NCBI GenBank assembly: GCA_045115935.1 | Contig: JBGULF010000035.1 | Span: 9,162 to 73,161, forward strand | Direction of reading: 5' to 3' | Length of the DNA stretch: 64,000 nt | Origin: Anaerovoracaceae bacterium | GTDB lineage: Bacteria; Bacillota; Clostridia; Peptostreptococcales; Anaerovoracaceae | Position numbers and translations under genes: made by a program | Notes under the pieces: generated by a model | The model's input: only the letters and a program-made list of their open reading frames with translations | Database searches by the model: none | Told to the model about the DNA's origin: nothing | In this document: positions 1,901-20,259 of the stretch, piece after piece | Layout: the number at the start of each line of letters is the position of its first letter | Position numbering within the stretch: the first letter of the stretch is position 1

Positions 1901-3853
1901 CTACCAGCCGCCGCCTCCGCCGCCGCCGCTTCCGCCGCCGCTGAAACCGCCTCCACTGAAGCCGCCTCCGCCGCTCCAGCTGCTTCCGCCGCCGCTTCCG
2001 CCGCTGCTCCAGCCTCCGCCGCTGCCGCCGGATGATGAAGGAATGACGATGCTGTTGTTTACGCTTGCGTTACAGTCGCTCATCATTCTTCCCATCATGT
2101 AGTAGTCAAAGGCGTCCATTCTGTCAGCGCCGCGGTACCAGTCCGGAGCATATACAGGCAGATCCTCGAAGTTCTTTATCCACTTGTTGCTCAGGCCGAA
2201 TACGTAAGCATAAGGCATTATGTGATAGAAGTATCCCGGATCTTCCTCGACGAGCTCATTCAGCTTGTCGAGCTCTGCTGTCTTTATGAAGTCTCTGAAT
2301 CCGAGCACTCTTCCGAGAAGGTCAGTGTATGCATCAGTCCTTGCGATAGCGATCACGGCAAAGAACATGCTGACCAGCGTACCTATCACAAGATACAGCA
2401 CCAGCGCCATTGCCTGAGGTCTCGAGAGAAGGGTGATCGCATCCGACACCAGCGGAAGTATGCCTACGCCCACAGTAAAGAACCAGATCGCGCCGAGGCT
2501 CTTAAGCACCGTCTTCACTTTCGAAGTGCCGCGGACATTGTCGTAGACGGAGCACATAAGATATACGGATATCAGGATATGAACGGCCGCCCAGCCGAGC
2601 ATGAATAGATCCATCTCATCACCGTTGACTCCCGCCCAGGTCACATATGCCGCTGACGGAACGATGGCAGCCACCGAGCAGCCGGCTCTTGCCATGCGCG
2701 AGTCAGGTCTGATGATGGCTTTGTTGCCTTCATACATTCCCTCAAGCTTTTCCTTCGCCTTGACAAACCTGTCTCCGAATGTATGCGAAGATGCAAGCTG
2801 AGTACTTGTCCTTACCCTCTTTTCTCCCGGGAATATGCCGAAATACATCTTTCTGACATAGTCAGGAACTTCCGGACCCGGGTCCTTTATGCCGATGAAT
2901 CTGAAGTTCTTTCTGCTTATCTCCTCTATCTCGAGGTATCCCTTATCTGCAAGGTATACGATAGTAGAGATCAGATCCTTCTTGTCGACCTTGCCGTCCA
3001 CAAGGTAGCCTACCTCGCCCGGAGTCAGATCATCCGGAGCGTAGAACTCAAGAGTCTTTACCATGTGCTTGTCTCTGCCGAAGAGGTACCAGAGCAGGAT
3101 CGCTCCGACAGGTCCGAGCAGGAACAGGAACATATTGGCAATGCTGAGTTTTCCGAATTCCGGTGCTCCTTCCCAGTATCCCTGAGGGAGCTCAAGCTGC
3201 AGTGTCACTCCGTGATGAGCCGGTATGTCATGTGCAGTGACAGTGATGGTCTTTCCGTCTTCGCTTGTTTCGAGAACGGCGTTGTCTTCGTTGGTATCGG
3301 TGCCGTATGAGCCCGAATAGACCTTCGCCTTGCTCAGATCGGCTTCCTTAGGAAGGTTGACCACGCACTTGCTCATTCCTATTTCGGTCTCCCAGTCAGT
3401 CGGGAGCAGGTTGAGGAGCAGCATGTCCTTCTCGTTATTCTCATCCTCGTACATCGCGATATTGTAATAAATGTCATAAGGATTCTCTCCGGTGAGCGTA
3501 TAGCTGCCGCTTCCGATCTTTAAGACCTGATATCCGGATTCCCTGTAGGCCTCATAGTCGTATCCCGGCACTTTGATCCCGGATAATTTCTGCCCCTGTG
3601 TAGGGATGTATCTGTAGATACCGTGATGAGCCGTGACATAGTACATATCGAGATGCTCATGGAAATCATATGAATTGTTTTCCGCAACATCGACGGTCAC
3701 ATCGTAGTTGATGGTATACATCGTGTTGTCGCTCGCATAGCTGCCCGTGCCGTCGGTCACGAACGGTATCGTCATGACTGCCAGTGCAGCTATTGCCAGC
3801 ACGGCCGCCGCCTTTTTCAGGATGCCGGTGCCGCTTGTTTTGATAGTTCTCAT
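1901..3853 (-). CDS. DUF2207-like membrane protein with Gly-rich C-terminal tail
   Basis: Track ORF 1901..4060 trimmed to ATG 3853 (AGGGGGA RBS); the upstream extension overlaps the LemA-like gene. MRTIKTSGTGILKKAAAVLAIAALAV anchor, large extracytoplasmic domain, C-terminal TM helices, then the tail SSSGGSGGGWSSGGSGGGSSWSGGGGFSGGGFSGGGSGGGGGGGW. Architecture and LemA neighbour are typical of DUF2207. Confidence 0.7.
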   Translation of the reverse strand: MRTIKTSGTGILKKAAAVLAIAALAVMTIPFVTDGTGSYASDNTMYTINYDVTVDVAENNSYDFHEHLDMYYVTAHHGIYRYIPTQGQKLSGIKVPGYDYEAYRESGYQVLKIGSGSYTLTGENPYDIYYNIAMYEDENNEKDMLLLNLLPTDWETEIGMSKCVVNLPKEADLSKAKVYSGSYGTDTNEDNAVLETSEDGKTITVTAHDIPAHHGVTLQLELPQGYWEGAPEFGKLSIANMFLFLLGPVGAILLWYLFGRDKHMVKTLEFYAPDDLTPGEVGYLVDGKVDKKDLISTIVYLADKGYLEIEEISRKNFRFIGIKDPGPEVPDYVRKMYFGIFPGEKRVRTSTQLASSHTFGDRFVKAKEKLEGMYEGNKAIIRPDSRMARAGCSVAAIVPSAAYVTWAGVNGDEMDLFMLGWAAVHILISVYLMCSVYDNVRGTSKVKTVLKSLGAIWFFTVGVGILPLVSDAITLLSRPQAMALVLYLVIGTLVSMFFAVIAIARTDAYTDLLGRVLGFRDFIKTAELDKLNELVEEDPGYFYHIMPYAYVFGLSNKWIKNFEDLPVYAPDWYRGADRMDAFDYYMMGRMMSDCNASVNNSIVIPSSSGGSGGGWSSGGSGGGSSWSGGGGFSGGGFSGGGSGGGGGGGW

Positions 3854-6973: not shown

Positions 6974-8233
6974 TCAATCCTCATCTTCAGGCTTGTCCTT
7001 GACCGCGATGCGCGTCATGAGAGCGCGCCTTGCATCGGCCTTGGTCACCTTGACGTGGAATAATTTGTGTTTTGATTCATAATCGAACTCATCGCCCACC
7101 TTAGGCAGTCTGTCGAGCTCTATCATTACCCATCCGTTGATCGTTGTGGCGTCCGCCTCGATCTCCTCGTCGAACATCTCAAAGAAGTCCTCGAGGTTGG
7201 CTCCGCCTGCCACCATGTAGACGTCATCGCCTGCCGGTCTGACATCTCTCGATGTGACGGTGTCGTGCTCATCATAGATATCGCCTACTATCTCTTCGAT
7301 GATATCCTCCAGGGTGACCAGACCGGTCGTGCCGCCGTATTCGTCGACAACGATCGCGATATGCGTCCTCTTGGCCTGCATCTTTTTGAGAAGTACGGCA
7401 GCCTTGAGAGTCTCGGCTACATAGGCCACCGGCTTTATGATCTTTTCGGTATCCTTTATTGTCTTTACGTTGTTGTTGTAAAGATCCTTCTGGTTGATTA
7501 CTCCAATGATGTCATCGAGGTCATCCTCGTACACAGGCAGTCTTGAGAGGCCGGATTCCTTGAAGACCTTTTTGATCTCCGAAACAGGCGTGCCTCTTTC
7601 GACCGCAACAATATCGACCCTCGGAGTGAGGATGTCGATAGCTTCTATGTCGTTGAATTCGATCGCATTTGCGATGAGCTCGCTCTGCTCCTCGCCTATC
7701 GCCCCGCCGGCCTCAGCCTCTTCGACTATGGTCAGCAGCTCATCCTCGCTGAACTCCGGCCCGTCCTTCTTGCCGAAGACCTTCTTGAGGAAGATCTTGA
7801 GTCCGTTGAAAATGAATGTCAGCGGCGTCAGTATGAATATGAGCGCTCTGACGAAAGGCGTCAGCGCGAGCGCGGTCTCCTCGGCGTATTCTCTTGCGAG
7901 TATCTTAGGTGAGATCTCGCCGAATACAAGTACGAGGAAAGTGACCATGACGGTGGCGATGGTCGGTCCGACCTTTGCTCCCCATGTCATGATGCCGTAC
8001 ACAGTTGCGACGGTCGTCATGGTGATGTTGGATATGGTGTTTCCGACCAGCACCGCAGTGATCAGCTTGTCGAAATCCTCGCAGAGTCTGAGCGCATATG
8101 CCGCGCGCTTGTTGTCATCAGCCGCGAGGTTCTTGAGTTTTATCTTGTTTGCCGAGCTGAACGCCGTCTCGGTAGCCGAGAAGAACGTTGAGCTCAGCGT
8201 AAGAAGTATTATTGCTATTAAATATCCGTTCAT
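6974..8233 (-). CDS. HlyC/CorC-family transporter (DUF21/CNNM + CBS pair + CorC_HlyC)
   Basis: 419 aa. N-terminal 4-TM DUF21-type region (ETAFSSANK...), a CBS pair, and a C-terminal CorC-type domain. The ATG overlaps the stop of the upstream giant gene (TAATG at 8231-8235). Confidence 0.85.
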
Positions 8234-11200
8234 TATTCCTTTCCGGAGATCTCCCAGACGATCGTTGTATCGATCTCAGGAGTCTCGAAGTTTTCGTTAT
8301 CGTATGTCAGATACGCCTTGGCGGTGTACTTGCCCGGAGCGATAGCTCTGTTGTCCCTGTATCTGACCGCGATCTGCCATGGAACATTCTTCAGCGTGAT
8401 GTGCTTTTCAGTTCCGTCGTATTCGAAAGGCTCTTCGTAATCCCAGTGAACTGCTGAAGTATCGTACTTCGCTCTGAGAATCCTCCACTTGAGGTCAGGT
8501 ATCTCGACGGCTTCACAGTTGCGTGTGTCGTAGATGAGCCTTGCCCTTGCGGTGTATGTGCCTGCGTTGATCTTGGAATTGTCTGTATATACAACTTCGA
8601 TGTCTTCAGGCACGCCTTCGAGCTTCACTTCCTTAGCCTTGTCGTCATATACGAATACTGTGTCATCGCCGTAGTTCCACTTCACCTCTGAGAGATCGAG
8701 CGGCTTCTTGGCGATCTTCCATCTGAGTTCAGGTACTGACGGAGCTTCGAAGTTCTCCTTGTGCTTGTAGCTGAGCTTAGCTTCAGCGGTATATCCGCCT
8801 GCATCGACACCCTTGTTTCCTACGTATGCGTCTACTCTGACGCCGTCAGGCAGTCCGACCAGCCTTACGCTCTTTTCCTTGCCGTCATATACGAACTCTT
8901 CATCGTAATTCCAGCGTACCTCAGACATGTCGTAGCACGCCTTGTCGATGTGCCACCAGCATCCGCTTACAGGAGCAGGAGCCTCGTAATTGACCGGATC
9001 CTTCGCCTCTACGACAGCCATGGCCTCGTATTCGCCGGAGTTAACGGCTCTGTTGTCGGTGTATGTCACCTTGACCGTCTCCGGAAGGCCGGCGAGTTCA
9101 ACGCATTTCTCTTCGTTATCGAATGTGAATGGTCCCTCGTAGTTCCAGTGTACGCCGCTCATGTCGATAGGCGCCTTCAGGATCTCCCACTTGAACGGCG
9201 GAAGTATGCGCTCGGTGTAGTTACCCGGCTCTCTGTTGATCAGCTTTGCAGTCGTATAGTAGACGCCTGCGTCAGTCGCTGTCTCTCCTTCGTAAACAAC
9301 GTCGAATCCTTCAGGGATACCTGCAAGGAACGTTTCAGGAGTAACTCCGCGCAGTTTCTCGAAGAAGCCGAGCTGGCGGGTCTTTGTGGCGATGCATACG
9401 CTCTTCGGAGTTCCGTCGTACATATACGGACCGTCATATACCCACTCCACTTTGTCTGCATCGACTTCAACAGCGGCAGGTGCGATGTTCCAGCTGCAGC
9501 CTCCGAATACAGGCTGCTCATAGTTTTCAGCATCATACTGAAGGTCGACCGAAGCTTCATAAGATCCGGCATCCGTTGCCGTATTGCCCGTATAGACCGG
9601 TGTGACACCCTCAGGCAGGCCTTCGATGTAAACCGACTTCTCGCTTCCGTCGAATGTGAATCCGGTGATGCCGCGCCATGCAGCCTGCGACATATCGTAT
9701 GAAGCCTTGCTGATGCGCCACTCGCAGCCACCCATTTCAGGTGTGTTATAGTTGTCTGCATCGTACTGAAGGTCGGCCGATGCGCTGTAGCTGCCTACGT
9801 TTACCGCGGTGTTGCCGTGGTATACAGGAGTAACTCCTTCAGGGAGGCCGGCGATATATACTGACTTCTCGCTTCCGTCATATACGGACTTGAATTCGCC
9901 TTCCCATCTTGCGCCGGACATGTCGTATGTGGCCTTCACTATGCGCCACTCGCAGTCTCTTATCGAAGTGCCGTTGTAGTTTGCAGGATCCTTAGGCGTG
10001 AGTTCGGCATGCGCGGTGTAATTGCCGGCTGCCGATGCCGTGTTGCCTGTATACTCAACGCTGAGTGATCCCGGAATGCCCTCGAGCTTTACGGACCTGA
10101 CATCGCCGTTATATACAAACGCGCGCGAGTAGTCCCATCTCAGTCTGCGGATGTCCGGATCAGCCTTTTCGATCGCCCACTCGCAGCTCATCTCTTCCGG
10201 TACATTGAAGTCCGAAGTGTCAATGCCGAATCTTGCCACGGCTCTGTATGTGCCTGCATTGACTGCAGTGTTGCCCTCATAGCTGACGCTTACTCCTTCA
10301 GGAATGCCTGTCAGCTGTATCCTCTTCGGTGTTCCGTCAAATACGTAGCTGCCGTCATAATCCCATGCGGCTCCACTCATGTCGTAGTCGGCCTTGTCGA
10401 TGCTCCAGTCGATCCTGACCGGTTCAGGCGCCCTGAAGTTGCTGTCGGATGTTGCGAAGCTGGCGGTAGCGATATAATTGCCCGCCTTGTCAGCGCTGTT
10501 TTCATTGTATTCAGCCGTCACATTCTCAGGCAGACCTGTCAGTTCGATGGTCTTTCTGCCGCCGTCGTATGTGAAGCAGCCAGGTTCGTAGTCCCATCTG
10601 ACCGCGGACATGTCGTAATCGGCTTTCTCGATCTCCCAGTCGCAGTCTGCAACGGACGGTGTGTTGTAGTTCGCAGGGTCAGATACCGTAAGCGTCGCTT
10701 TTGCGGTATATCTGCCGGCTTCCTTGCCCTCGTTGCCGGAATAGTCCGCCTTGATGCCGTTCGGGAGCTGCTCGAGCATTACACTCTGCTCTCTTCCGTT
10801 GAACACCTTAGGATTGTTGTAGTCCCATCTGACTGCGGACATGTCGTAGTCGGCCTTTACGATCTGCCACTTGCAGCTCTCGATGACCGGCTGATTGTAG
10901 TTGTATGAGTCATAAGGAATGAGCTCTGCAGCAGCTTCGTATGAACCTGTGTCAGCAGCAGCATTGCCGGAGTATACGGCTCTGACTCCGTCAGGAAGTC
11001 CTCTGAGCGATACTTCGTGCATCCTTCCGTTATATCTGAATTCACCTTCATAATCCCAGAAAGCTCCCGACATGTCGTAATCGGCCTTCCTGATCTCCCA
11101 CTCGAGTTCCATAGGCTCAGGAGTGTTGAAGTTGCGGCTGTCTGCCGCTGTGAACGTAACGCTTGCCCTGTATTTGCCGGCATCGCGCATCGCGTTTCCT

Positions 11201-14200
11201 CTGTATGTAGGGAGAACGCCCTCAGGCAGTCCCTTCAGGACCACTCTGAACTCACTGCCGTCATATGTGAAAGGCTTGTCGTAATTCCAGCGTACATGGC
11301 TCATATCGTAATCGCCCTTTTCGATCCTCCATGTGAGGTGCTCGAGTCTGGATTTTTTAAGGTTCTCCATGTCGTCAGGAATGATCTCGGCAGCGGCTAC
11401 ATATGTGCCGGCCTGGCTGGCCTTGGCGTTGCTGTACTTGACCATTGTGCCTTCTGGCACGTTTCTGACAGCGACCGTCTTCTCGGTGCCGTCGTAAACG
11501 AAGGACTCATCATAATCCCAGCTGACTGCAGATATGTCTACCGGAGTCCTTTCGATCACCCAGTGGCATGTTGCGACTTCAGGCTTGTTGTAGTTCTTCT
11601 CATCGTACAGGAATCCGGCTCTCGCGGTATATTCACCTGCTGCCGAAGCCGAGCTGCCTTCGTACTCAGGTGTGAGGCCTTCAGGCAGTCCTGTCAGCCA
11701 GATGCCCTTTGTATCGCCGTCATACGAGAATTCCCTGTTCTCCTGCCATCTGACTTCGCTCATGTCGAACGAAGCCTTCTCGATGCACCAGTCGAGCATC
11801 ATGTCAGGGATGTTGTCCTCGTAATTATCAGGATCCTTGACGCTGAACTTCGCAGTCGAGGTGTATGCGCCCGCATCAGTTTCGGTTGCGTTGAAGTACT
11901 CTGCGGATACTCCGTCAGGGAGTCCTGCGACACTGACAGTCTTAGGGCTGCCGTCATAGACGAACGGCTCGCTGTAGTCCCAGTAAGCTCCGCTCATGTC
12001 GAACTGCGCCTTGCTGATGCCCCATGAGCAACCCTGCGGATCAGGGGCTCTGAAGTTGTTGTCATCAACAGGTGAGAAGATCGCTTTTGCGAAGTATCTG
12101 CCGGCGCCTTCTGCTGTGTTGCCTGTGTATTCGACATTGACGGCATCGCCGAGGTCGTTGATTATGCTTACGGATTTCTCGCTTCCGTCGTATACGAAAC
12201 CAGACGAGTCTGTCCATGACAGCTGCGGCAGTTTATACTCCGCCTTGTCAATCGACCACGAGCAGCCGTTGACCTCAGGCACCTCGTAATTGTTTGCGTC
12301 GGTCGGTACGAGCACCGCGCTTGCGGCATACATTCCCGCCTCTACGAATGTGTTGCCGCTGTACTCAACTTCAACTCCCTCAGGAACGTTGACCAGAACG
12401 ATCCCGTGCTCGTTTCCGTCATATTCGAACGGCTCAGAATAATCCCAGCGTACATCCGAAATATCTATCCTGTTCTTCAGTATCCTCCATCTGCAGTCCG
12501 CAGGGGATGCTACTTCGAGGTTGTCTCCGTCGAATTTCAGTCTGGCATGCGCATTGTAGATGCCTGCATCGTATGCGGAAGCGTTCTCATACTCCGCATA
12601 AACGCCCTCAGGCAGTCCTTCGAGCTCCACGCCTTTGGCCTCTCCGTCATAGGTGAAAGGTGCGTCATAGTTCCATCTTACGCCGGACATGTCGACAGTC
12701 TTTTTAGCGATACTCCAGCCTGTGGTCATGTCGTCAGGCGTATTGTAGTTGTGTGTGTCAGGATTGATGAAGGAAACGCGTGCGGTGTATTCGCCGGCTC
12801 TTCTTCCCTCATTTCCGCTGTATCTGACTCCGAGCTCCTTAGGATACGATGCCAGCTGTACGCCGTGCATCTCTCCGTCGTATTCGAAATCCGTGTCTGC
12901 GCACCATGCGGCACCGGACATATCATAGGAAGCCTTTGCGATCTCCCATTCATACTCCGCCGGGCCCATGAGGCAGTAGTTGCCTTTCAGGGATGCTCTC
13001 GCGAGATACTTTCCGGCCTGGGACTCCTCTGCTCCGTCATATTCAACGTCAGCATCCTCAGGCAGATTCGTGATGAACACCTTCTTCGGTTCGCCATCGT
13101 ATACAAAGTCTTCACAGCCCGACCACTCGAGGTCCGCTGCATCGATCTCTACCTTTTTTATCTCCCATACGCACGGAGCCACATCCTGCGGCTTCTCGTA
13201 ATTGGAGCCGTCATAACTGAATTTTGCTCTTGCGGTATAGACACCGGCTTCTCTGCCTGAATTGTTTTCATAAGAAGCAGTGACGCCCTCAGGCAGTCCC
13301 TTGAGCTCTACGGAATGCTCAGCGCCGTCATATCCGAACGGACCGTCATATACCCAGCCTACCTGCGACATGTCGTAGGTTCCCTTGCGGATCGTCCACT
13401 CGTGTTCGCGGACTATGAGCGGCTCATTGAAGTTATCCTGATCGAAATCGAAGCTGAGCGTCGATGTGTATGTGCCTGCCTCGACTCCCTCGTTTCCTTT
13501 ATATTTAGGCACGACGCCTTCAGGCAGTCCCTCGAGCCATACGCGCTTGACGCTGCCGTCGTAAGTCATGTCATCTTCTTCTGCCCAGCGCACTCCGGAT
13601 ACATCGATGTTGGCTCTGCTGATGCTCAGCTTAACGGCATTCGAAACCGCTTCGCCAATGCTGTTTGCAGCGTGGAGTCTCAGAAGATATCCGTCGCATG
13701 ATACAGGAAGGATGGCGTTATGGTTGATCGGACGCCAGCTGCCTTCTTCTCCTGTAGCGCTTATTTCAAGATATCCCGTGACTTCAGGGTCATTTACGGA
13801 AATGATGTCCGGAAGTTCGAACGGAATGGTCTCTCCGAACGAGAAAGGAGCCGGTTCGCTGACCTCCCCGATTTTCGGAGCATGTCCCCATATAGCGTAA
13901 AGATCGAGATCCCTGTCGACCGACTTGACATCTGATCCGGCCGGAAGTGCAGCTCCTTTTCCGTCAGGACGCGAGTTCCATGTCATGAACTTCCAGCTTT
14001 CATCAGGTCTGTCAAACATAGGTGTCTCTATCTGATATCCCGCGTTAGGGATCGTGCGTCTTTCCTCAACGATCTCTTCAGCCTCGCCGTCAAAGTTGCT
14101 GTGATAAAGCACCCTGAAGCCCTCTACTGCTATCGGCTTTGCCTTTTTGTACTTGCCGTATTCCTTCACTGCAAGTCTGCCGCAGTCCGTGCTTCCGTCG

Positions 14201-14619
14201 CCGTTTGTGCTGAAATCATTGCCGAGACGTATATCATCGAGCTTTGCGCACTGAGCAAACATTCTGCTCATATCCGCACAGTTACGGGTGTCGAATGAAG
14301 AGATGTCCATCTCGCGGAGGTTCGCGCATCCTTCGAACATCGAATCCATGCGTGTGACATTTGAAGTGTCAAAACCGCTCAGATCTGCCTTGATCATCTT
14401 TCTGCAGCCCCTGAACAGTCCCGCCAGAGATGCCCCGTCAGGGAAGCTCACATCGCGTGTAGCGAGCACGGATCTGATTTCGTCTTCAAAGCCCTTCCAT
14501 GGAGCTCCTTCATCACCCAGGTCTGCAGCCAGTCCGTTGTCAATGAGGAGATTGCCGTTCTCATCGATACCCCATATGCATTCGCCCCATTTGCCTACTT
14601 TTATAAAGTTGCCTGCCAT
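8233..14619 (-). CDS. Giant (2128 aa) repeat protein: 26-residue surface-protein/BspA-type LRR + Listeria-Bacteroides repeat + 23 MBG(YGX)-like repeats
   Basis: ATG 14619 with an AAGGGA RBS. aa 55-135: DLSGFDTSNVTRMDSMFEGCANLREMDISSFDTRNCADMSRMFAQCAKL (TIGR02167/DUF285-like). aa 165-245: GY..ETP...W.F..WNSRPDGKG.....LYAIW (Flg_new-like). aa 336-2128: 23 repeats of the form YDMS.V.W.Y..PF.YDG..K.V.L.GLPEGV...Y.GN....AG.Y.A.A.......NYN.P....C.W.I.KA. No N-terminal signal peptide, no LPXTG and no C-terminal TM. Confidence 0.9.
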   Translation of the reverse strand: MAGNFIKVGKWGECIWGIDENGNLLIDNGLAADLGDEGAPWKGFEDEIRSVLATRDVSFPDGASLAGLFRGCRKMIKADLSGFDTSNVTRMDSMFEGCANLREMDISSFDTRNCADMSRMFAQCAKLDDIRLGNDFSTNGDGSTDCGRLAVKEYGKYKKAKPIAVEGFRVLYHSNFDGEAEEIVEERRTIPNAGYQIETPMFDRPDESWKFMTWNSRPDGKGAALPAGSDVKSVDRDLDLYAIWGHAPKIGEVSEPAPFSFGETIPFELPDIISVNDPEVTGYLEISATGEEGSWRPINHNAILPVSCDGYLLRLHAANSIGEAVSNAVKLSISRANIDVSGVRWAEEDDMTYDGSVKRVWLEGLPEGVVPKYKGNEGVEAGTYTSTLSFDFDQDNFNEPLIVREHEWTIRKGTYDMSQVGWVYDGPFGYDGAEHSVELKGLPEGVTASYENNSGREAGVYTARAKFSYDGSNYEKPQDVAPCVWEIKKVEIDAADLEWSGCEDFVYDGEPKKVFITNLPEDADVEYDGAEESQAGKYLARASLKGNYCLMGPAEYEWEIAKASYDMSGAAWCADTDFEYDGEMHGVQLASYPKELGVRYSGNEGRRAGEYTARVSFINPDTHNYNTPDDMTTGWSIAKKTVDMSGVRWNYDAPFTYDGEAKGVELEGLPEGVYAEYENASAYDAGIYNAHARLKFDGDNLEVASPADCRWRILKNRIDISDVRWDYSEPFEYDGNEHGIVLVNVPEGVEVEYSGNTFVEAGMYAASAVLVPTDANNYEVPEVNGCSWSIDKAEYKLPQLSWTDSSGFVYDGSEKSVSIINDLGDAVNVEYTGNTAEGAGRYFAKAIFSPVDDNNFRAPDPQGCSWGISKAQFDMSGAYWDYSEPFVYDGSPKTVSVAGLPDGVSAEYFNATETDAGAYTSTAKFSVKDPDNYEDNIPDMMLDWCIEKASFDMSEVRWQENREFSYDGDTKGIWLTGLPEGLTPEYEGSSASAAGEYTARAGFLYDEKNYNKPEVATCHWVIERTPVDISAVSWDYDESFVYDGTEKTVAVRNVPEGTMVKYSNAKASQAGTYVAAAEIIPDDMENLKKSRLEHLTWRIEKGDYDMSHVRWNYDKPFTYDGSEFRVVLKGLPEGVLPTYRGNAMRDAGKYRASVTFTAADSRNFNTPEPMELEWEIRKADYDMSGAFWDYEGEFRYNGRMHEVSLRGLPDGVRAVYSGNAAADTGSYEAAAELIPYDSYNYNQPVIESCKWQIVKADYDMSAVRWDYNNPKVFNGREQSVMLEQLPNGIKADYSGNEGKEAGRYTAKATLTVSDPANYNTPSVADCDWEIEKADYDMSAVRWDYEPGCFTYDGGRKTIELTGLPENVTAEYNENSADKAGNYIATASFATSDSNFRAPEPVRIDWSIDKADYDMSGAAWDYDGSYVFDGTPKRIQLTGIPEGVSVSYEGNTAVNAGTYRAVARFGIDTSDFNVPEEMSCEWAIEKADPDIRRLRWDYSRAFVYNGDVRSVKLEGIPGSLSVEYTGNTASAAGNYTAHAELTPKDPANYNGTSIRDCEWRIVKATYDMSGARWEGEFKSVYDGSEKSVYIAGLPEGVTPVYHGNTAVNVGSYSASADLQYDADNYNTPEMGGCEWRISKASYDMSQAAWRGITGFTFDGSEKSVYIEGLPEGVTPVYTGNTATDAGSYEASVDLQYDAENYEQPVFGGCSWNIAPAAVEVDADKVEWVYDGPYMYDGTPKSVCIATKTRQLGFFEKLRGVTPETFLAGIPEGFDVVYEGETATDAGVYYTTAKLINREPGNYTERILPPFKWEILKAPIDMSGVHWNYEGPFTFDNEEKCVELAGLPETVKVTYTDNRAVNSGEYEAMAVVEAKDPVNYEAPAPVSGCWWHIDKACYDMSEVRWNYDEEFVYDGKEKSVRLVGLPDGVRVDAYVGNKGVDAGGYTAEAKLSYKHKENFEAPSVPELRWKIAKKPLDLSEVKWNYGDDTVFVYDDKAKEVKLEGVPEDIEVVYTDNSKINAGTYTARARLIYDTRNCEAVEIPDLKWRILRAKYDTSAVHWDYEEPFEYDGTEKHITLKNVPWQIAVRYRDNRAIAPGKYTAKAYLTYDNENFETPEIDTTIVWEISGKE
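8236..13614 (-). repeat. 23 tandem degenerate coding repeats, 73-79 aa each (one of 101 aa), about 230 bp period
   Basis: Repeat boundaries counted residue by residue. They sum exactly to aa 336-2128 of the giant ORF. Confidence 0.85.
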
Positions 14620-14709
14620 TTTTCTATCCCTTTTTTATCGTTAGTGTTACCTTAAATCGTGCTGCATCGAGCACATAATCATACATAGTAGATTATACTA
14701 AATAATCAG

Positions 14710-14752
14710 TGCAAAATAAAGAAATCCGCAGACCTATTTGGAATCTGCGGAT
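14710..14752 (-). terminator. Rho-independent terminator after the met-racemase operon
   Basis: Minus strand: AUCCGCAGA-UUCCAAAUAGG-UCUGCGGAU followed by UUCUUUAUUUU, 25 nt after the racemase stop. Confidence 0.75.
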
Positions 14753-14776
14753 CTCAGATCTATATTACTTCTGTGT

Positions 14777-15481
14777 CTATCGGGTGGCTCTGACCAGTGC
14801 CTCAAACATCCTGTCAGCAGGATCTATGAGGGGCAGACCGGTCCGTCCTGCGAGTTCGTCCTTAAAGTAAGGGAAATGCGTACAGCCGAGCACTATCGCC
14901 CCGGCTCCGCATGCTTCCATGTATTTCGCCATTTCTTCAAGGCCGCATTCTTCGACTATCCTTTCAGGATCCATCCCGTCCTCTATACTGCGCACGATGG
15001 CCATGTTGCCCGTACCTATAACATATACGTCGGGGCTCGAAGCCATGAGCGCCTCCTCGATAGCATGCGCCGACAGATTATTGGCTGCCATTACTCCTAC
15101 ACGGCTGAACTCCCTGCCGAGCAACCTGTATACCTGAAGAGGTGTATAGATGCGGATGTCTTCACCCGTCTCTGCCGATTTCCTGACTGCGTAGATGTCA
15201 AAATCGAAAGATCCCGAGAGCGAGTTGCAGTAGATGAAGAAATCCCTGACGCCTTCCTCTATTGCCTCGTTGAACAGGCCGTCCATTATCGCACGTTTTT
15301 CATCGTCGTCCGAATACTGGAATCTTACCTGCGCATCGCAGTCCTCCGACACCGGGCAATACAACGGCAAGAAGCCGGGCTCTGTGCCGGCTTCCTGCGT
15401 TTTGCGTTCTATGTATTCGACACCCATCTGAGTGTCTACGGGGGTTCCCGCTATGACCGCTGTTTTGATCAAATTACTCAT
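14777..15481 (-). CDS. Asp/Glu/hydantoin racemase-family protein (two-Cys racemase)
   Basis: 234 aa. IYCNSLS and LGCTHFPY match the paired catalytic-Cys motifs of Asp/Glu racemases (cf. ACNTA / LGCTHYP). The start lies 12 nt after the metQ stop. Confidence 0.7.
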   Translation of the reverse strand: MSNLIKTAVIAGTPVDTQMGVEYIERKTQEAGTEPGFLPLYCPVSEDCDAQVRFQYSDDDEKRAIMDGLFNEAIEEGVRDFFIYCNSLSGSFDFDIYAVRKSAETGEDIRIYTPLQVYRLLGREFSRVGVMAANNLSAHAIEEALMASSPDVYVIGTGNMAIVRSIEDGMDPERIVEECGLEEMAKYMEACGAGAIVLGCTHFPYFKDELAGRTGLPLIDPADRMFEALVRATR

Positions 15482-15493
15482 TTATCGTCTGAT

Positions 15494-16318
15494 TTAGAAC
15501 TTAGGCTGAACAGCTCCGTTGTATGTGTTGAGGATGAAGTCCTTTACATCATCTGTCTGGATAGCCTTTACGAGAGCCTGTGTCTTCTCGCTGTTCTCGT
15601 TGCCTGCATTTACTACGATAACGTTTACATATGTCTCAGCAGCTTCGGAATCAGCAGCCTCGTAAGCAACTGCATCGTCTGTTGTGAGGCCTGCACCGAG
15701 TGCATAGTTTGCGTTGATAACGCCAAGTGCGAGGTCAGGAAGCGAAGCAGGGATTGTTGCAGCTTCAAGCTCAACGATCTCAATGTTCTTCGGATTATCA
15801 ACGATGTCAAGCTTTGTAGCCTCGAGTCCGACTCCGTCCTTCAGTGTGATAACGCCGTTTGCTGCGAGCAGCTGGAGAGCTCTTGCTTCGTTTGTTACGT
15901 CGTTTGGAACGCCGATCTTGTCTCCGTCAGCGAGAGCATCGAAGCTGTCCTTCTGGCCCTTGTAAGCGCCCATTGCTTCATAGTGTACGTTTGCAACAGC
16001 TACCAGGTCTGTGCCGTTTTCAGTGTTGTACTGATCGAGGTAAGGAACGTGCTGGAAGTAGTTGGCATCAACGTCGCCGTCTGTTGTAGCCACGTTAGGC
16101 TGTACATAGTCATCGAACTCGACTACTTCGAGTGTCCATCCTTCTTCTGCGAGAGCTTCCGAGATCGAATTGAGGATCTCTGCGTGAGGTGTAGGAGAAG
16201 CAGCTACCTTGATGGTCTTGTCTGCGGAATCACCGCCGCCTCCTCCGCATGCTGCGAGGATACCGAGTGAAAGCACGAGTACTGCTGCAAGAATGCTGAA
16301 TCTTTTGATGTTCTTCAT
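15494..16318 (-). CDS. metQ: Methionine ABC transporter substrate-binding lipoprotein (MetQ/NlpA family)
   Basis: 274 aa. Lipobox LGILAAC followed by a GGGGG linker, NlpA-family body, downstream of metN-metI. Confidence 0.88.
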   Translation of the reverse strand: MKNIKRFSILAAVLVLSLGILAACGGGGGDSADKTIKVAASPTPHAEILNSISEALAEEGWTLEVVEFDDYVQPNVATTDGDVDANYFQHVPYLDQYNTENGTDLVAVANVHYEAMGAYKGQKDSFDALADGDKIGVPNDVTNEARALQLLAANGVITLKDGVGLEATKLDIVDNPKNIEIVELEAATIPASLPDLALGVINANYALGAGLTTDDAVAYEAADSEAAETYVNVIVVNAGNENSEKTQALVKAIQTDDVKDFILNTYNGAVQPKF

Positions 16319-16393
16319 TGTTTTGTCCCTTTCTACTAAACAGTTATACCAGTGATATTTTTTAGCTTTTATTTATACCCTTTGGGGTCTTAA

Positions 16394-17056
16394 CTAGTTG
16401 ATGCGGTTGTCGTATTTATTGACTACCTTGATTCCGATCTCCTGGAATATCTGTACAAGTATTACCAGGAGAACTATGGTTATCCACATTATCGAAGGCT
16501 GGAATCTGTAGAGTCCGTATCTGATGGCGATCTCTCCGAGTCCTCCGGCTCCGACTATACCGGCCATTGCCGTGTAGCCGAGTATGTTGATCGTAGCTAC
16601 AGCAGCTCCGTTCAGAAGCGATGGTCTGGCTTCGAGCAGCAGCACCTTGCGGATTATCTGCAGATTGCTGGCACCCATGGCCTGTGCTGCTTCTATGACT
16701 CCCGGATCGACTTCGAGAAGCGACTGCTCCACGAGCCTTGCTACGAATGGCGCCGCTGCCACTATCAGGGCTGCTGTCGCCGCCTCCTTGCCTATGCCCG
16801 TTCCGATCAGCTTACGTATGTAAGGCATCAGGGCGATCATAAGGATGAGGAATGGTACCGATCTCAGGATGTTGACTATGAAGCCAACCACCTTGTTGTA
16901 TATTCCCAGCGGCCTTATTCCTCCCGGCGCCGTCACTATGAGTGAGACTCCTATAGGAAGACCGATGATATACGATACCACCGTACAGATGATGATCATA
17001 TACAGGGAATCCAGTGTTCCGTGTGCGAGAAGGGCTATAAGTTCATGAATATCCAC
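16394..17056 (-). CDS. metI: Methionine ABC transporter permease
   Basis: 220 aa, 5 TM, MetI-type EAA loop (EAAQAMGAS). The GTG start overlaps the metN stop by 1 nt. Confidence 0.88.
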   Translation of the reverse strand: MDIHELIALLAHGTLDSLYMIIICTVVSYIIGLPIGVSLIVTAPGGIRPLGIYNKVVGFIVNILRSVPFLILMIALMPYIRKLIGTGIGKEAATAALIVAAAPFVARLVEQSLLEVDPGVIEAAQAMGASNLQIIRKVLLLEARPSLLNGAAVATINILGYTAMAGIVGAGGLGEIAIRYGLYRFQPSIMWITIVLLVILVQIFQEIGIKVVNKYDNRIN

Positions 17057-18099
17057 TATGCCTTCACCTCCTCTTCGATTTCTTCCTCTTCGATCTCAGT
17101 GACCTCTACACCTTTTGCCTTGAGGTACTCTTTCTGTTTCTCCGCCGTCTCCTTGTCGGCTGCCAGGCATATCACCATCTGTCCTTTCTGGGATCCGCCA
17201 AGCACATCGAGGTTAGCATACAGGAAGTTCACCGGCGCCTTGAGCTCTACTATCATGTTAGCTATTATCGGCTCGCCTGCATTTGCTTCATCAAACACCA
17301 GTCTGACTCTGTTCTTCGTCGACGTCTTCGTCAGCGGTTTTTCATGGATCTGTCCGTCCGGATAGAAGAGCTTTTTCGCTGCCTTAGTCTTTGGTTTCCT
17401 GAAGATCTCCGATACCTCACCGCGCTCCACGATCTCACCGTTTTCGATTACAGCGACCTTGTTGCAGAGCTGCTTTATGACCTCCATCTCGTGGGTGATC
17501 ACCACCAGTGTGATTCCGCGCTCTTCGTTGATCTTCCTCAGCAGGCTCAGAATCGATCTTGTCGTTTTAGGGTCGAGAGCCGATGTAGCCTCGTCGCACA
17601 GGATGACTTCAGGATCGGATGCAAGCGCTCTTGCAATCGCCACTCTCTGTTTCTGGCCTCCGGAGAGCTGCGACGGATACGAGTGCGCTCTGTCTTCGAG
17701 GTCTACGACCTTGAGGAGTTCCTGAGCTTTCTCGAGTGCTTCCGCCTTCGGAACTCCCGCGATCTCCAGCGGGAAGAGTATGTTTCCGATAGCGTCTCTC
17801 TGCATCAGCAGGTTGAACTGCTGGAATATCATGGATATCTTGCGCCTGTGGATGTTGAGGTCCTTGTTTTTCAGCCCTGTAAGGGTGCTTCCGTTGAAGA
17901 TGACTTTACCCTCGGTAGGCTGTTCGAGGAGGTTTATCGTTCTGACCAGTGTCGACTTGCCCGCGCCGGAAAGACCGATTATTCCGTATGAGTCTCCTCT
18001 TTCGATGTCCAGATTGATGTCCTTCAGCGCGACCACCTTGCCGCCCTTTGTATCGAACTCCTTTGTGACCCCTTTAAGTCTTATAATGTGTTCTGCCAT
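17056..18099 (-). CDS. metN: Methionine ABC transporter ATP-binding protein with C-terminal NIL domain
   Basis: Start trimmed to ATG 18099 (AAAGGAAC RBS; MAEHIIRLKGVTKEF). Walker A GLSGAGKST, signature [15 protein letters not shown], and a NIL-type C-terminus. Confidence 0.92.
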   Translation of the reverse strand: MAEHIIRLKGVTKEFDTKGGKVVALKDINLDIERGDSYGIIGLSGAGKSTLVRTINLLEQPTEGKVIFNGSTLTGLKNKDLNIHRRKISMIFQQFNLLMQRDAIGNILFPLEIAGVPKAEALEKAQELLKVVDLEDRAHSYPSQLSGGQKQRVAIARALASDPEVILCDEATSALDPKTTRSILSLLRKINEERGITLVVITHEMEVIKQLCNKVAVIENGEIVERGEVSEIFRKPKTKAAKKLFYPDGQIHEKPLTKTSTKNRVRLVFDEANAGEPIIANMIVELKAPVNFLYANLDVLGGSQKGQMVICLAADKETAEKQKEYLKAKGVEVTEIEEEEIEEEVKA

Positions 18100-18108
18100 T
18101 CTGTTCCT

Positions 18109-18149
18109 TTCTGAAAAATAATATGGGGCAGGTCTTAACGACCTGCCCC
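18109..18149 (-). terminator. Intrinsic terminator (candidate attenuator) immediately upstream of metN
   Basis: Minus strand: GGGGCAGGUC-GUUAA-GACCUGCCCC (18149-18125), then AUAUUAUUUUU. It ends about 10 nt before the metN RBS. Confidence 0.8.
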
Positions 18150-18208
18150 GGCATCTCACACATGAGAAATATACACAGTTTCCGGATTCGTTATGACCTT
18201 ATCCTATG

Positions 18209-18274
18209 CTATTCATCGGCTCTGCACATGCACATGCCCATCATTCCCATTTCCATCATCATGTTTCTTGTCAT
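18209..18274 (-). CDS. Met-codon-rich leader peptide (21 aa) of the metNIQ operon
   Basis: AAAGGAG-9nt-ATG(18274) ACA AGA AAC ATG ATG ATG GAA ATG GGA ATG ATG GGC ATG TGC ATG TGC AGA GCC GAT GAA TAG(18209) = MTRNMMMEMGMMGMCMCRADE. 9 of 21 codons are ATG and 2 are Cys. Confidence 0.6.
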   Translation of the reverse strand: MTRNMMMEMGMMGMCMCRADE

Positions 18275-18311
18275 GTGAATGTGCTCCTTTCATAGAATAA
18301 GTTCAGTTGCT

Positions 18312-18340
18312 AATATAGCAACAATTACTTGTGTTGTCAA
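18312..18340 (-). promoter_or_regulatory. Sigma-A-type promoter of the leader-metNIQ-racemase operon
   Basis: Minus strand: TTGACA (18340-18335), 17-nt spacer, TATATT (18317-18312), about 35 nt upstream of the leader ORF. Confidence 0.6.
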
Positions 18341-18382
18341 CTAATATACTTTTGGTTTTTTGTTGTTTTCCACAAAGTGCAT

Positions 18383-18955
18383 TTATTTTTCATCAGCAAG
18401 TGTTCCACCTGCTTCTCTGATCTCCTGTCTTATCAGCTTATATGCTTCCTTCATCTCATCCATGCTGCTGAAAGCATGCAGAGGCACAGGCATTATCATC
18501 GTGTCGCTCATCCATACGTAGATCGCTTCTTCTGTGAGGTCGACCTGCTTGATGTCCTTATAGTCGAACGACTGGTGGTCTTCTCCCGCATCCGTGATGA
18601 GAGCATCATCGCCTATTGTGATCACATTCTCCACTGCGTGGACTCTCTCAATGGTATCCGTTGAATTTTTAATGGCTTTATCCTGCTGTCTGAGCAGTAT
18701 TCTTTCCGCAAAAATCGGTCCGCCGATACCGATAACAGCCGCGACTGCATAGGCGATCATGGTGAACTGATGATCTGCATGGAATATTGTGAAAAGTCCG
18801 GCTATGCAGATACCGCTGATCAGATATGTCAGTCTCTGCCTGTTTACCAGTTTACGTCCGCCCTCAGTATAGAGGATACGGTAGCGGCCGAACGCTATAT
18901 AATCATCATCTGTAAGTATAAACTTAATTACTCTTGGGTTCTTTTTGGTTGCCAT
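18383..18955 (-). CDS. YcxB-like membrane protein
   Basis: Start trimmed to ATG 18955 (AAGGAGA RBS; MATKKNPRVIKF...). Two central TM helices flanked by soluble halves, as in YcxB/DUF-type proteins. Confidence 0.5.
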   Translation of the reverse strand: MATKKNPRVIKFILTDDDYIAFGRYRILYTEGGRKLVNRQRLTYLISGICIAGLFTIFHADHQFTMIAYAVAAVIGIGGPIFAERILLRQQDKAIKNSTDTIERVHAVENVITIGDDALITDAGEDHQSFDYKDIKQVDLTEEAIYVWMSDTMIMPVPLHAFSSMDEMKEAYKLIRQEIREAGGTLADEK

Positions 18956-19122
18956 CTCTGTCTCCTTATTATGCCGGCAGCTCAAGCCGGCGCATTCACG
19001 GTTAACAGTATATCACATGCAGGGCTGTCGTGGTTTTAATTTACGTGCAAAAACAGTATAATTACTTGATTGGGTTAAGAGAAAAAGTTGCTCATTCGGA
19101 TTGACAAAGAGGGGATAAAGAT

Positions 19123-20124
19123 ATGACTACAGTTGCATTTATCGGCGGAGGAAGCTTTGGTACGGCTCTTTCCACAGTGCTTGCAGGAAAAGGCTGCAGG
19201 ATCAACATCTTTGATATCGACCAGGATCATCTTGCCCGCATGGCAGCAGACATGGAAAACAAGGATTATCTTCCGGGCGTAAAGCTCGAAGGTGATTACC
19301 ATTTCTGCAAGACAAACGAAGAAGCTCTGAAAGAAGCTGAATTCGTCATCTTCGCCCTTCCGGCACAGCATGTGAGAAGCGCCATAAAATCGGCCGTTCC
19401 TTTCATCCGTGAAGACGCGATCATCACCTGCATCTCCAAAGGCCTTGAGCAGAAAACGCACAAAAGGATGTCTGAGGTCATAGGCGAATACTTCGATCTC
19501 GACAGATATGTTTGCATCAGCGGTCCTTCGCACGCCGAGGAAGTCGGCATTGGCGTCCCTACGGTCGTAGCGATGTCATCGAGGAAGGAATCCACTGCAA
19601 TAGCCATGGCAGAGCTCTTCAGCACAAACAAATTCAGAGTCTATCTGAATGACGACATGAAGGGCATGGAGCTCGCAGCTTCGCTCAAGAACGTTCTCGC
19701 AGTAGGCTCGGGAATCGCCAACGGAGCCGGCTATGGAGACAACACTCTGGCAGCCATGCTTACTATAGGCTGTGCGGAAGCGACATCACTCGGAGTTAAA
19801 ATGGGAGCAAGGCCTTCGACTTTCTTCGGACTCGCAGGAATCGGCGACATGATCGTAACATGCACGAGCATCCACTCCAGAAATTTCCGCTGCGGCAGGC
19901 TTCTCGGAAAGGGCTATAAGCCTGAGGACGCAATAAAGGAAATCGGCATGGTATCCGAGGGAATGTACACGGCAGAAGTCGCGAAGGAGCTCTCTGAGCA
20001 GATGGGCATTGATATGCCGATCTTCAACGCCATCTACGACGTCATCAACGGCAAGATCACCGTACAGGACGCGATGGAAGATCTCATGTGCAGACCGATC
20101 GGACGCGAGGCAGATTACCTCTAG
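19123..20124 (+). CDS. gpsA: NAD(P)H-dependent glycerol-3-phosphate dehydrogenase
   Basis: 333 aa. N-terminal IGGGSFGTAL Rossmann motif and a GpsA-type C-terminal domain (NFRCGRLLGKG, MVSEGMYT). Confidence 0.93.
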   Translation: MTTVAFIGGGSFGTALSTVLAGKGCRINIFDIDQDHLARMAADMENKDYLPGVKLEGDYHFCKTNEEALKEAEFVIFALPAQHVRSAIKSAVPFIREDAIITCISKGLEQKTHKRMSEVIGEYFDLDRYVCISGPSHAEEVGIGVPTVVAMSSRKESTAIAMAELFSTNKFRVYLNDDMKGMELAASLKNVLAVGSGIANGAGYGDNTLAAMLTIGCAEATSLGVKMGARPSTFFGLAGIGDMIVTCTSIHSRNFRCGRLLGKGYKPEDAIKEIGMVSEGMYTAEVAKELSEQMGIDMPIFNAIYDVINGKITVQDAMEDLMCRPIGREADYL

Positions 20125-20183: not shown

Positions 20184-20259
20184 GCGCTCGTAGCTCAGTG
20201 GATAGAGTGTCTCACTCCGAATGAGAAGGCCGCGGGTTCGATCCCCGCCGGGCGCACCA
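20184..20259 (+). tRNA. tRNA-Arg (anticodon CCG), encoded CCA end
   Basis: Cloverleaf folded by hand. Acceptor GCGCTCG/CGGGCGC, D arm GCTC-AGTGGATA-GAGT, anticodon arm TCTCA-CTCCGAA-TGAGA, T arm GCGGG-TTCGATC-CCCGC, then A-CCA. 76 nt. Confidence 0.92.

Follow-up and report, generated by a model that had tools for sequence, protein, structure and literature searches.

The methionine-import operon metNIQ on the minus strand of the 64-kb stretch of Anaerovoracaceae DNA analyzed here (the window) is preceded by a short open reading frame (ORF) packed with methionine codons and then by an intrinsic terminator, and this leader is probably a ribosome-mediated leader-peptide transcription attenuator that would couple expression of the MetNIQ importer to the supply of charged elongator Met-tRNA. 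The element is real, strongly conserved and unannotated; its antiterminator and switching logic are hypotheses, and we infer both of these as well as the response to methionine and the state set by each position of the ribosome. A translated Met-rich leader and a terminator that together control metNIQ by read-through had been proposed from the letters of the window alone (hereafter the original prediction), and the proposal is now supported by comparison of 23 aligned leaders and by Met-dense ORFs found in more distant Clostridia.

All parts of the original prediction can be read on the minus strand (Table 1): the promoter, the Shine-Dalgarno (SD) sequence, the 21-codon ORF with its nine ATG and two Cys codons (Met at positions 1, 5-7, 9, 11, 12, 14 and 16), the spacer of about 60 nt (59 nt between stop codon and hairpin) and the 10-bp hairpin. 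The promoter scores 11/12 with an extended -10 element (TG before TATATT) and is the best promoter-like site within 14500-19200; relatives keep TTGAC(A/T) and TAT(A/C/T)(A/G/T)T as its boxes, and transcription is predicted to start near 18308-18304. The leader ATG (18274) follows the SD by 9 nt, a spacing shared by 22 of the 23 leaders (10 nt in locus L018). The terminator has a GC-rich stem and reads GGGGCAGGTC-GTTAA-GACCTGCCCC (18149-18125) followed by ATATTATTTTT (18124-18114) in the DNA, with RNA arms GGGGCAGGUC-GUUAA-GACCUGCCCC. It had been placed about 10 nt before the metN ribosome-binding site, a figure that is slightly too large: only 3 nt lie between the end of the U tract and the metN SD, and 14 nt between it and the metN ATG (18099), which leaves no space for a separate metN promoter after the hairpin, as had been stated. 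Downstream genes were identified by Pfam, which confirms MetN, MetI and MetQ, and the order metN-metI-metQ is kept in every relative whose contig is long enough.

To define the family, the window's MetN was searched against species-representative genomes, which gave 80 metN loci. The 18 closest (L001-L018, MetN 73-95% identical) come from rumen or gut metagenome-assembled genomes (MAGs) named Mogibacterium, Anaerovoracaceae or 'Clostridiales', and the leader stands upstream of metN in 17 of the 17 whose contig spans the upstream region; the contig of the eighteenth, L007, begins within the leader and retains the terminator and a decayed second copy of the ORF. A metagenome scan with the 18-mer of the leader core as query returned 120 stretches, six of which (L081, L085, L107, L153, L178 and L179) are real leaders, each directly upstream of metN. 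Six stronger nhmmer matches inspected among the other stretches were rejected as unrelated coding sequences; stretch L126 is a eukaryote-like Met/Gly repeat, and the metagenome genes with the motif MAMGMMGM(F/W) presumably encode multicopper oxidases. The 17 close relatives and six metagenome contigs make up the alignment used throughout (A1, n = 23). Conservation across related metN upstream regions, which had been proposed as a check, is borne out by it: the ORF and its SD are present in 23 of 23 leaders and the terminator in 22, the exception being L010, which has no 3' arm.

The density of Met codons is itself unusual. In a census of small ORFs (ATG-started, 8-45 codons, both strands) the leader ORF is alone among the 661 of the window in having eight or more Met codons, and the 80 metN loci (0.5 Mb, both strands, 4083 small ORFs) hold 23 such ORFs, 22 of which lie upstream of metN on the metN strand. 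Twenty-one of these 22 are leader ORFs, 69-279 nt upstream; the remaining one, at L063 1721-1852 in a Lachnospiraceae MAG, has 43 codons with 9 Met, lies 214 nt upstream of metN and is possibly another leader variant. On this comparison the leader is not a chance ORF, because it is the sole such ORF in the window and recurs in relatives.

In more distant Clostridia, where MetN is only 54-59% identical, the place before metN is taken by other Met-dense ORFs on the same strand; each has 7-13 Met codons and is followed by an intrinsic terminator. The loci concerned (L019, L020, L021, L023, L029, L030, L031 and L034) belong to Lachnobacterium and to MAGs whose labels go no further than Clostridia, Eubacteriales or Bacillota; all distant leaders inspected have the terminator, and the pattern M-x-M-x-M-C recurs among their peptides (Table 1). 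In the L021 group the gaps between members are only of 3, 6 or 9 nt. Similarity between close and distant leaders is marginal (nhmmer E 1e-4 to 0.02, no better than spurious matches), so that common descent of the two is not shown. What the groups have in common is Met-codon density, position and architecture, not sequence; this is the strongest argument that the AUG codons are read as codons, and selection, as judged from these alignments, is on Met codons rather than on one particular sequence.

The variation within the close family likewise points to translation. The 23 leaders encode 18 distinct peptides of 20-25 residues, each with 7-9 Met; substitutions fall between the Met residues (E to D, N or T; G to R; C to R), Met positions are rarely altered, and the N- and C-termini vary in sequence and length, and conservation is limited to the Met core, MM(M)xMGMMGMCMC. 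The N-terminal part of the ORF spans 24, 27 or 33 nt from the AUG to this core, all in frame, and length differences among the 23 ORFs are whole codons throughout. In-frame insertions and deletions (indels) in two groups, together with the conserved SD and AUG, are indirect signs that the leader ORF is translated. An exact look-up of eight leader peptides in a collection of 15 billion predicted proteins found none, and protein searches are thus unable to extend the family. The conserved ORF, with its good SD and its wealth of sulfur amino acids, could also be taken for the first gene of the operon, encoding a functional Met/Cys-rich micropeptide (metal-binding, antioxidant or a transporter accessory), but nearly all members have a terminator between it and metN, its termini vary freely, its Cys codons appear to follow RNA pairing (see below) and none of the eight peptides is in the protein collection; such a role is extremely unlikely. 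The end of the ORF and the P1 3' strand contain stop codons in all three frames (UAG, UAG, UAA at 18211-18197, minus strand, UAGCAUAGGAUAAGG), and each AUGA of the Met run yields a UGA in the +1 frame; ribosomes slipping frame at hungry AUG codons would still terminate inside the leader.

The leader RNA folds more stably than its shuffles (z = -2.5), and three of its helices are denoted P1, P2 and the terminator. Pairing and covariation across the 23 leaders were compared with 500 shuffles and with slid registers: 86-99% of cells are paired in the three helices and six pairs are changed on both sides, values matched by 0 of 500 shuffles, with slid registers far lower. P1 encloses the SD and the ORF, is paired in 98% of cells and has one compensatory change (U-A to C-G, in L153); by eye, the whole of P1 is swapped in L018 for other complementary strands, CUACGCGUUAAUU/AAUUAGCGUAG. 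P2 is paired in 99% of cells with compensatory double changes at two pairs, and the base of the terminator stem covaries at three. By these comparisons all three helices are well supported. The P2 double changes (A-U to G-C) convert Cys15 or Cys17 to Arg (UGC to CGC or CGU) in L014, L016, L178 and L107, with the 5' strand compensating; because both Cys codons become Arg along with compensating changes in P2, they probably serve RNA pairing (with the CAC before the start codon) and not cysteine sensing. Folds without a ribosome have the start codon paired in 23 of 23 leaders and the SD paired in part; in 22 of 23, an extension of P1 pairs two or more nt of GGUC with the pre-SD strand. The distant leaders repeat this arrangement in different sequences: their pre-SD region pairs with a late part of the ORF, and Met-Cys codons pair with the start codon.

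No known RNA sensor was detected. Rfam 15 was run over the whole window at gathering thresholds, where it gave nothing but a tRNA (no S-adenosylmethionine (SAM) riboswitch class and no T-box), and permissively (E<=10) over 17950-18500, where it gave only noise far under the cut-offs (STnc450, RsaE, a plant microRNA and small nucleolar RNAs). The match to STnc450 covers the -10 region (E 0.02) and that to RsaE lies across the terminator on the opposite strand; both are far under their gathering scores and were dismissed. The claim that 18100-18340 holds neither S-box nor T-box is thus upheld at either setting. This negative is meaningful because the same models detect such elements in other metN loci: among the 60 distant loci also scanned, a SAM-I riboswitch lies upstream of metN in three (L037, L041 and L047, Cellulosilyticum), and T-box leaders occur at L059 4902-5145 and L068 4895-5153 (Clostridiales/Oscillospiraceae-like), inside the operon and downstream of metI. 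The position of these T-boxes suggests that they probably stand in front of metQ and not upstream of metN.

In the attenuator as we envisage it, the strong promoter would give a leader transcript of ~205 nt, and a ribosome would load at the conserved SD and translate the ORF of 20-25 codons with its 7-9 AUG codons. With ample Met-tRNA the ribosome would reach the stop codon, melt P1 and reach or abut AGGUC, 3-16 nt downstream; the antiterminator would then be incomplete, the 10-bp terminator would form and transcription would end 14 nt before metN. When Met-tRNA is scarce the ribosome would instead stall at one of the AUG codons, 15 nt or more before the stop, leaving AGGUC-A-UAACGA-N2-CC free to pair with GG-UCGUUA-R-GACCU before the terminator 3' arm exists; the terminator would be blocked and RNA polymerase would read into metNIQ. 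While the ORF is free of ribosomes, P1 and P2 would lock the SD-proximal region and the start codon, which probably limits translation to ribosomes that load during transcription.

The candidate antiterminator is a complementarity between an unusually conserved strand and the apical half of the terminator, in which AGGUC would pair with GACCU, UAACGA with UCGUUA and CC with GG. Of the alignment cells, 93% maintain these pairs, with one C-G to U-A change in L016 and a shifted 6-bp version in L018, and the terminator loop and upper stem (GGCAGGUCGUUARGACC) are unusually conserved for a plain terminator. RNAfold returns UAACGA..CC:GG..UCGUUA in each of 7 transcripts that stop after the terminator loop, whichever part of the ORF is masked, and alifold likewise recovers the antiterminator pairing. 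In the three leaders for which the calculation succeeded, the terminator exceeds the antiterminator in stability by 5-12 kcal/mol; in the E. coli trp attenuator too the terminator is the more stable, and the order of synthesis decides. The refolding barrier from antiterminator to terminator estimated with findpath is ~17-20 kcal/mol with AGGUC free and ~8-9 without it, a difference that holds in 11 of 22 leaders; this barrier model is suggestive, not clean. From the first base of the stop codon to the antiterminator strand the distance is 3-16 nt across leaders (13 nt to GGUC in the window), with AGGUC 12-13 nt past that base in the window and 12 leaders of the same geometry and 15-16 nt past it in L005 and L006.

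Other pairings fared less well. Two antiterminators had been suggested for the window: UCCGG:CCGGG occurs there and, shortened, in L001 only, other relatives having UCCAG, AGCC and similar, and the G-U helix UGUGCAUG/CAUGUGUG is not conserved and is absent from the folds. A hairpin CAUAG:CU(A/G)UG around the antiterminator strand, which alifold gives when the P1 5' strand is left out, was rejected as well because it is weak (5 bp). P1 was rejected as a strict anti-antiterminator: once the transcript extends five bases into the terminator 3' arm, GGUC leaves P1 for these bases in 18 of 22 leaders, whatever the ribosome state. The extension of P1 over GGUC is the only competitor found, and it is weak (~3-5 kcal/mol) with an untranslated 5' strand; no trp-like '1:2' pairing with the regulatory codons was found in the leader structures. 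Equilibrium folding with masked ribosome positions was set aside as uninformative alone on mechanism, the terminator being present in every full-length minimum-energy fold, masked or not.

Several observations weigh against the attenuator. Antiterminator covariation is not above that of shuffles in the 23 leaders, because most positions are invariant. For the subgroup to which the window belongs, the barrier model, which is crude, favours the CAUAG:CUGUG hairpin and gives a low barrier. A distance of 12-13 nt from stop codon to AGGUC is borderline, at the very edge of a terminating ribosome's footprint, and under a +13 mask 14 of 22 sequences still form the antiterminator. Equilibrium folding does not distinguish a stalled ribosome from none, the outcome being the same. 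In trp the Trp codons lie in a strand competing with the antiterminator; the Met codons here are placed otherwise, in the loop of P2 and in its 3' strand. Methionine starvation should also lower initiation at the leader AUG, an effect outside the model. Finally, the Glu and Gly codons that lie between the Met codons show no synonymous variation in the close family, which points to an extra constraint at the RNA level.

This last observation would suit an RNA-only sensor in which the ORF is incidental and the P1-P2 domain, with its conserved purine-rich loop AUGAUGAUGGAAAUGGGAAUGAUGGG, binds methionine, SAM or a related compound, tRNA-Met or a TRAP-like protein that recognizes spaced AUG triplets, such binding then deciding between terminator and antiterminator. 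The compensatory changes in P1 and P2, a loop conserved by nucleotide down to the synonymous Glu and Gly sites, the pairing of the SD (partly) and the AUG (fully) in ribosome-free folds, and Met codons not positioned as in classical attenuators all fit such a sensor. All members nevertheless keep a strong SD at fixed spacing from the AUG, indels of the 'loop' are whole codons in two independent groups, and the distant leaders retain Met-codon density and not the loop sequence; moreover no Rfam family matches, and a single hairpin with a 35-nt open loop would be an unusual aptamer. TRAP attenuation relies on 9-11 (G/U)AG triplets spaced by 2-3 nt and does not require translation, whereas the repeats here are AUG, spaced 0 or 3 nt and in a single reading frame from an SD-served AUG. 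Taken together these features make an RNA-only sensor improbable.

A second possibility retains the translating ribosome and departs from the trp-style scheme: with its start codon locked by its own Met-Cys codons in P2, the leader may be a translation-gated switch whose default is read-through, in which termination would need a ribosome that completes the ORF and sits on the P1 3' strand and AGGUC. P2 would then have a role, that of a gate open only to a ribosome loaded co-transcriptionally. We regard this variant as tentative and rather unlikely. The conserved peptide core raises a third, namely that the ribosome is stalled by the nascent Met-rich peptide acting with free methionine or SAM inside the exit tunnel, and that this stall controls the terminator, much as TnaC arrests with tryptophan and the MTO1 region of plant CGS1 with SAM. 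MM(M)xMGMMGMCMC is kept in the close family and M-x-M-x-M-C appears in distant leaders, but the residues between the Met are replaceable, the distant leaders share Met richness only, and a stall upstream of the stop at high methionine would free the antiterminator and induce the importer when methionine is abundant, which is the wrong sign. An arrest peptide is thus very unlikely.

Upstream of the promoter, the inverted repeat TTTGT-N8-ACAAA lies at an equal distance from the -35 box in nearly all 23 leaders despite differing upstream genes, and L023 and L030 carry similar elements. With its operator-like look it is a candidate transcription-factor site tied to the promoter; its half-site spacing does not match the CRP or Rex consensus. 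Its conservation together with the leader allows the idea that methionine control is exerted by a transcription factor at this site and that the leader is a constitutive partial terminator or a damper of expression, but this would leave unexplained a Met-packed leader ORF that exists in many divergent versions, and as a replacement for attenuation it is highly doubtful. A factor at the repeat may well act alongside the attenuator as a further level of control, and would then complement attenuation more than compete with it. Further upstream, a tRNA-Arg(CCG) gene lies on the opposite strand at 20184-20259 (+).

Table 1. Features of the metNIQ leader and operon (window coordinates) and leader peptides of distant loci.
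Feature	Position	Strand	Sequence or remarks
Inverted repeat	18359..18376	-	TTTGTGGAAAACAACAAA (TTTGT-N8-ACAAA); ~27 nt upstream of -35 box, centred near -62
Promoter, sigma-70-type	18312..18340	-	-35 TTGACA 18340-18335; 17-nt spacer with TG; -10 TATATT 18317-18312
P1, 5' strand	18291..18304	-	GAAC + CUUAUUCUAUG (CUUAUUCUAUG = 18301-18291); directly 5' of SD; pairs 18304-18291 with 18208-18195
SD of leader ORF	18284..18290	-	AAAGGAG; near-invariant in 23 leaders (L018 needs one-column shift)
P2, 5' strand	18272..18284	-	GCACAUUCACAUG; SD-AUG spacer and start codon; pairs 18284-18272 with 18236-18224
Leader ORF	18209..18274	-	MTRNMMMEMGMMGMCMCRADE; 21 codons + TAG (18211-18209); 9 ATG, 2 TGC
P2, 3' strand	18224..18236	-	CAUGUGCAUGUGC; codons Met14-Cys15-Met16-Cys17
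P1, 3' strand	18195..18208	-	CAUAGGAUAAG + GUC (CAUAGGAUAAG = 18208-18198); begins right after stop codon
Candidate antiterminator, 5' strand	18184..18199	-	AGGUC-A-UAACGA-AU-CC, AGGUCAUAACGAANCC; just after P1, unusually conserved
P3, small hairpin	18154..18167	-	UCUCA-UGUG-UGAGA; in most relatives conserved CUCAU pairs with upstream AUGAG instead
Intrinsic terminator	18114..18149	-	10-bp stem 18149-18140 with 18134-18125; loop GUUAA; tail AUAUUAUUUUU
Candidate antiterminator, 3' strand	18130..18143	-	GG-UCGUUA-A-GACCU; end of terminator 5' arm, loop, start of 3' arm
metN	17056..18110	-	including SD AAAGGAA 18110-18104; ATG 18099; Pfam ABC_tran + NIL
metI	17056-16394	-	Pfam BPD_transp_1
metQ	16318-15494	-	Pfam NlpA lipoprotein
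Asp/Glu/hydantoin-racemase-family gene	15481-14777	-	Pfam; directly follows metQ
L019 leader peptide			MMNTTMRTMLMMTSNMMMPMGMCMCTF...
L020 leader peptide			MRYQSSTNMMNMTTMMSMCMRSMMQMC...
L021 and L023 leader peptide			M..MMNMMDMCMGMCMCTFTDK... (L029, L031 shorter versions)
L030 leader peptide			MTIYRNSMMDMMMMCMTMGMRN...
L034 leader peptide			MAQFSNSMMNMDMMMQMSMGMCVMMMCK...

Some relatives depart from the standard layout between terminator and metN. L010 (~2990-3001) has the full leader and the 5' arm and loop of the terminator, lacks the 3' arm and U tract, and continues directly into metN; it is either a natural deletion giving a constitutive operon or an assembly error. Six relatives (L002, L005, L006, L013, L015 and L017) have 60-110 additional nt between terminator and metN, with a weak U tract and another hairpin, and three of them (L002, L005 and L006) have there a promoter-like TTTATG-N17-TAAAAT, which may be a second, leader-independent metN promoter. 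A decayed second copy of the Met-rich ORF occupies the same interval in L009 (2916-2985), L007 (48-121), L012 and L085: the L009 copy reads MMMELRMMDMCMCAPK, has no SD and ends 19 nt before the metN AUG, the L007 copy is frameshifted, and in L012 and L085 only a fragment is left, just upstream of metN. Judged by sequence, these copies look like the relic of a tandem duplication of the leader.

At the other end of the operon, the racemase-family gene that follows metQ is also found after the operon in 12 of the 18 close relatives. MetNIQ systems take up D-methionine, and the gene could encode a methionine racemase. A terminator-like hairpin lies within the annotated ORF at 15398-15367, and given its position the start codon may be further downstream. 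An ORF encoding 2128 aa occupies 8233-14619 (-), downstream of the operon.

In Firmicutes, control by methionine is the textbook domain of riboswitches and T-boxes. The leader has the same position and output as SAM-I and Met T-box elements, a terminator before metNIQ (SAM-I occupies that place in the Cellulosilyticum relatives); the difference is that in those systems RNA directly senses SAM or uncharged tRNA, whereas here the proposed sensor is the translating ribosome. The classical leader-peptide attenuators are those of E. coli trp, his, leu, thr, ilvGMEDA and pheA. Like them, the Met leader has a short ORF with cognate codons, then an intrinsic terminator and a putatively competing upstream segment near the stop codon, and a terminator thermodynamically stronger than its (here candidate) antiterminator. 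It differs from them in that the amino acid is methionine, which also serves initiation, the host belongs to the Clostridia and the target is an importer rather than a biosynthetic operon; in that the regulatory codons lie in the loop and 3' strand of P2 and sequester the leader's own start codon; and in that P1, with an untranslated 5' strand, encloses the whole ORF. In translation attenuation of the ermC and cat type, too, a hairpin that sequesters an initiation region is remodelled according to where a ribosome stands in a short leader ORF, but there the sequestered site is that of the downstream resistance gene and the stall is drug-dependent, whereas here it is the leader's own start and the output is transcription termination. 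The element is thus of a known kind, and it differs in amino acid, phylum, density of regulatory codons, importer target and start-codon-sequestering architecture.

The statement that no Met-codon leader peptide had been characterized stands in part: full-text literature searches for a characterized Met leader peptide, or for an upstream ORF before metN, found none, while uncharacterized MetL predictions exist in C. jejuni and S. lividans. C. jejuni MetL, upstream of metBA, is a predicted peptide of 20 residues with three Met codons (PMC3847290), whose translation start has been seen by initiation-site profiling, and in the same study CJsORF19 (MMYQMR) lies upstream of the gene for the Met-binding protein Cj0772c (PMC11955535). 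S. lividans metL (..ARCMCRRMCAF) lies upstream of metNIQ and is leaderless, with no clear terminator (PMC8079986). Like the leader described here, these are small Met-codon ORFs in methionine-gene leaders for which attenuation was proposed, and the S. lividans case shares the operon and, in a comparison of the published peptide by eye, Met-Cys pairs; they differ in having 3-4 Met codons as against 7-13 here, and no family-wide comparative or structural analysis is reported for them. A short ORF in L074-L076, ..(F/C)AMRM(F/S)M(C/R)A.., with 3-4 Met codons, an SD and start paired with the ORF and a terminator following, stands 116-131 nt upstream of metN and resembles the S. lividans peptide (..CMCRRMCAF); this ORF may be a related form of the device with fewer Met codons. 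In a survey of attenuators, leader peptides were rare in Firmicutes (PMC2965389).

At least 26 of the 80 metN loci have a Met-codon-dense leader ORF and terminator, in Anaerovoracaceae/Mogibacterium and in several other rumen and gut Clostridia, and current annotation misses these leaders because protein collections lack the ORFs and Rfam lacks the RNA. They offer a compact conserved system of ~200 nt in which to ask how the ribosome reads methionine supply when methionine both starts and extends every protein, and a Met leader would show how the sensing of Met-tRNA differs from that of SAM. The start-codon-sequestering hairpin made of regulatory codons is a design unlike that of classical attenuators. 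If the default is read-through, low fMet-tRNA (through initiation) and low Met-tRNA (through elongation) would both lead to the import of methionine, which would solve the problem posed by an amino acid that feeds both processes, and the leader would be the common regulator of metNIQ across several lineages of Clostridia in which the operon is without S-box control.

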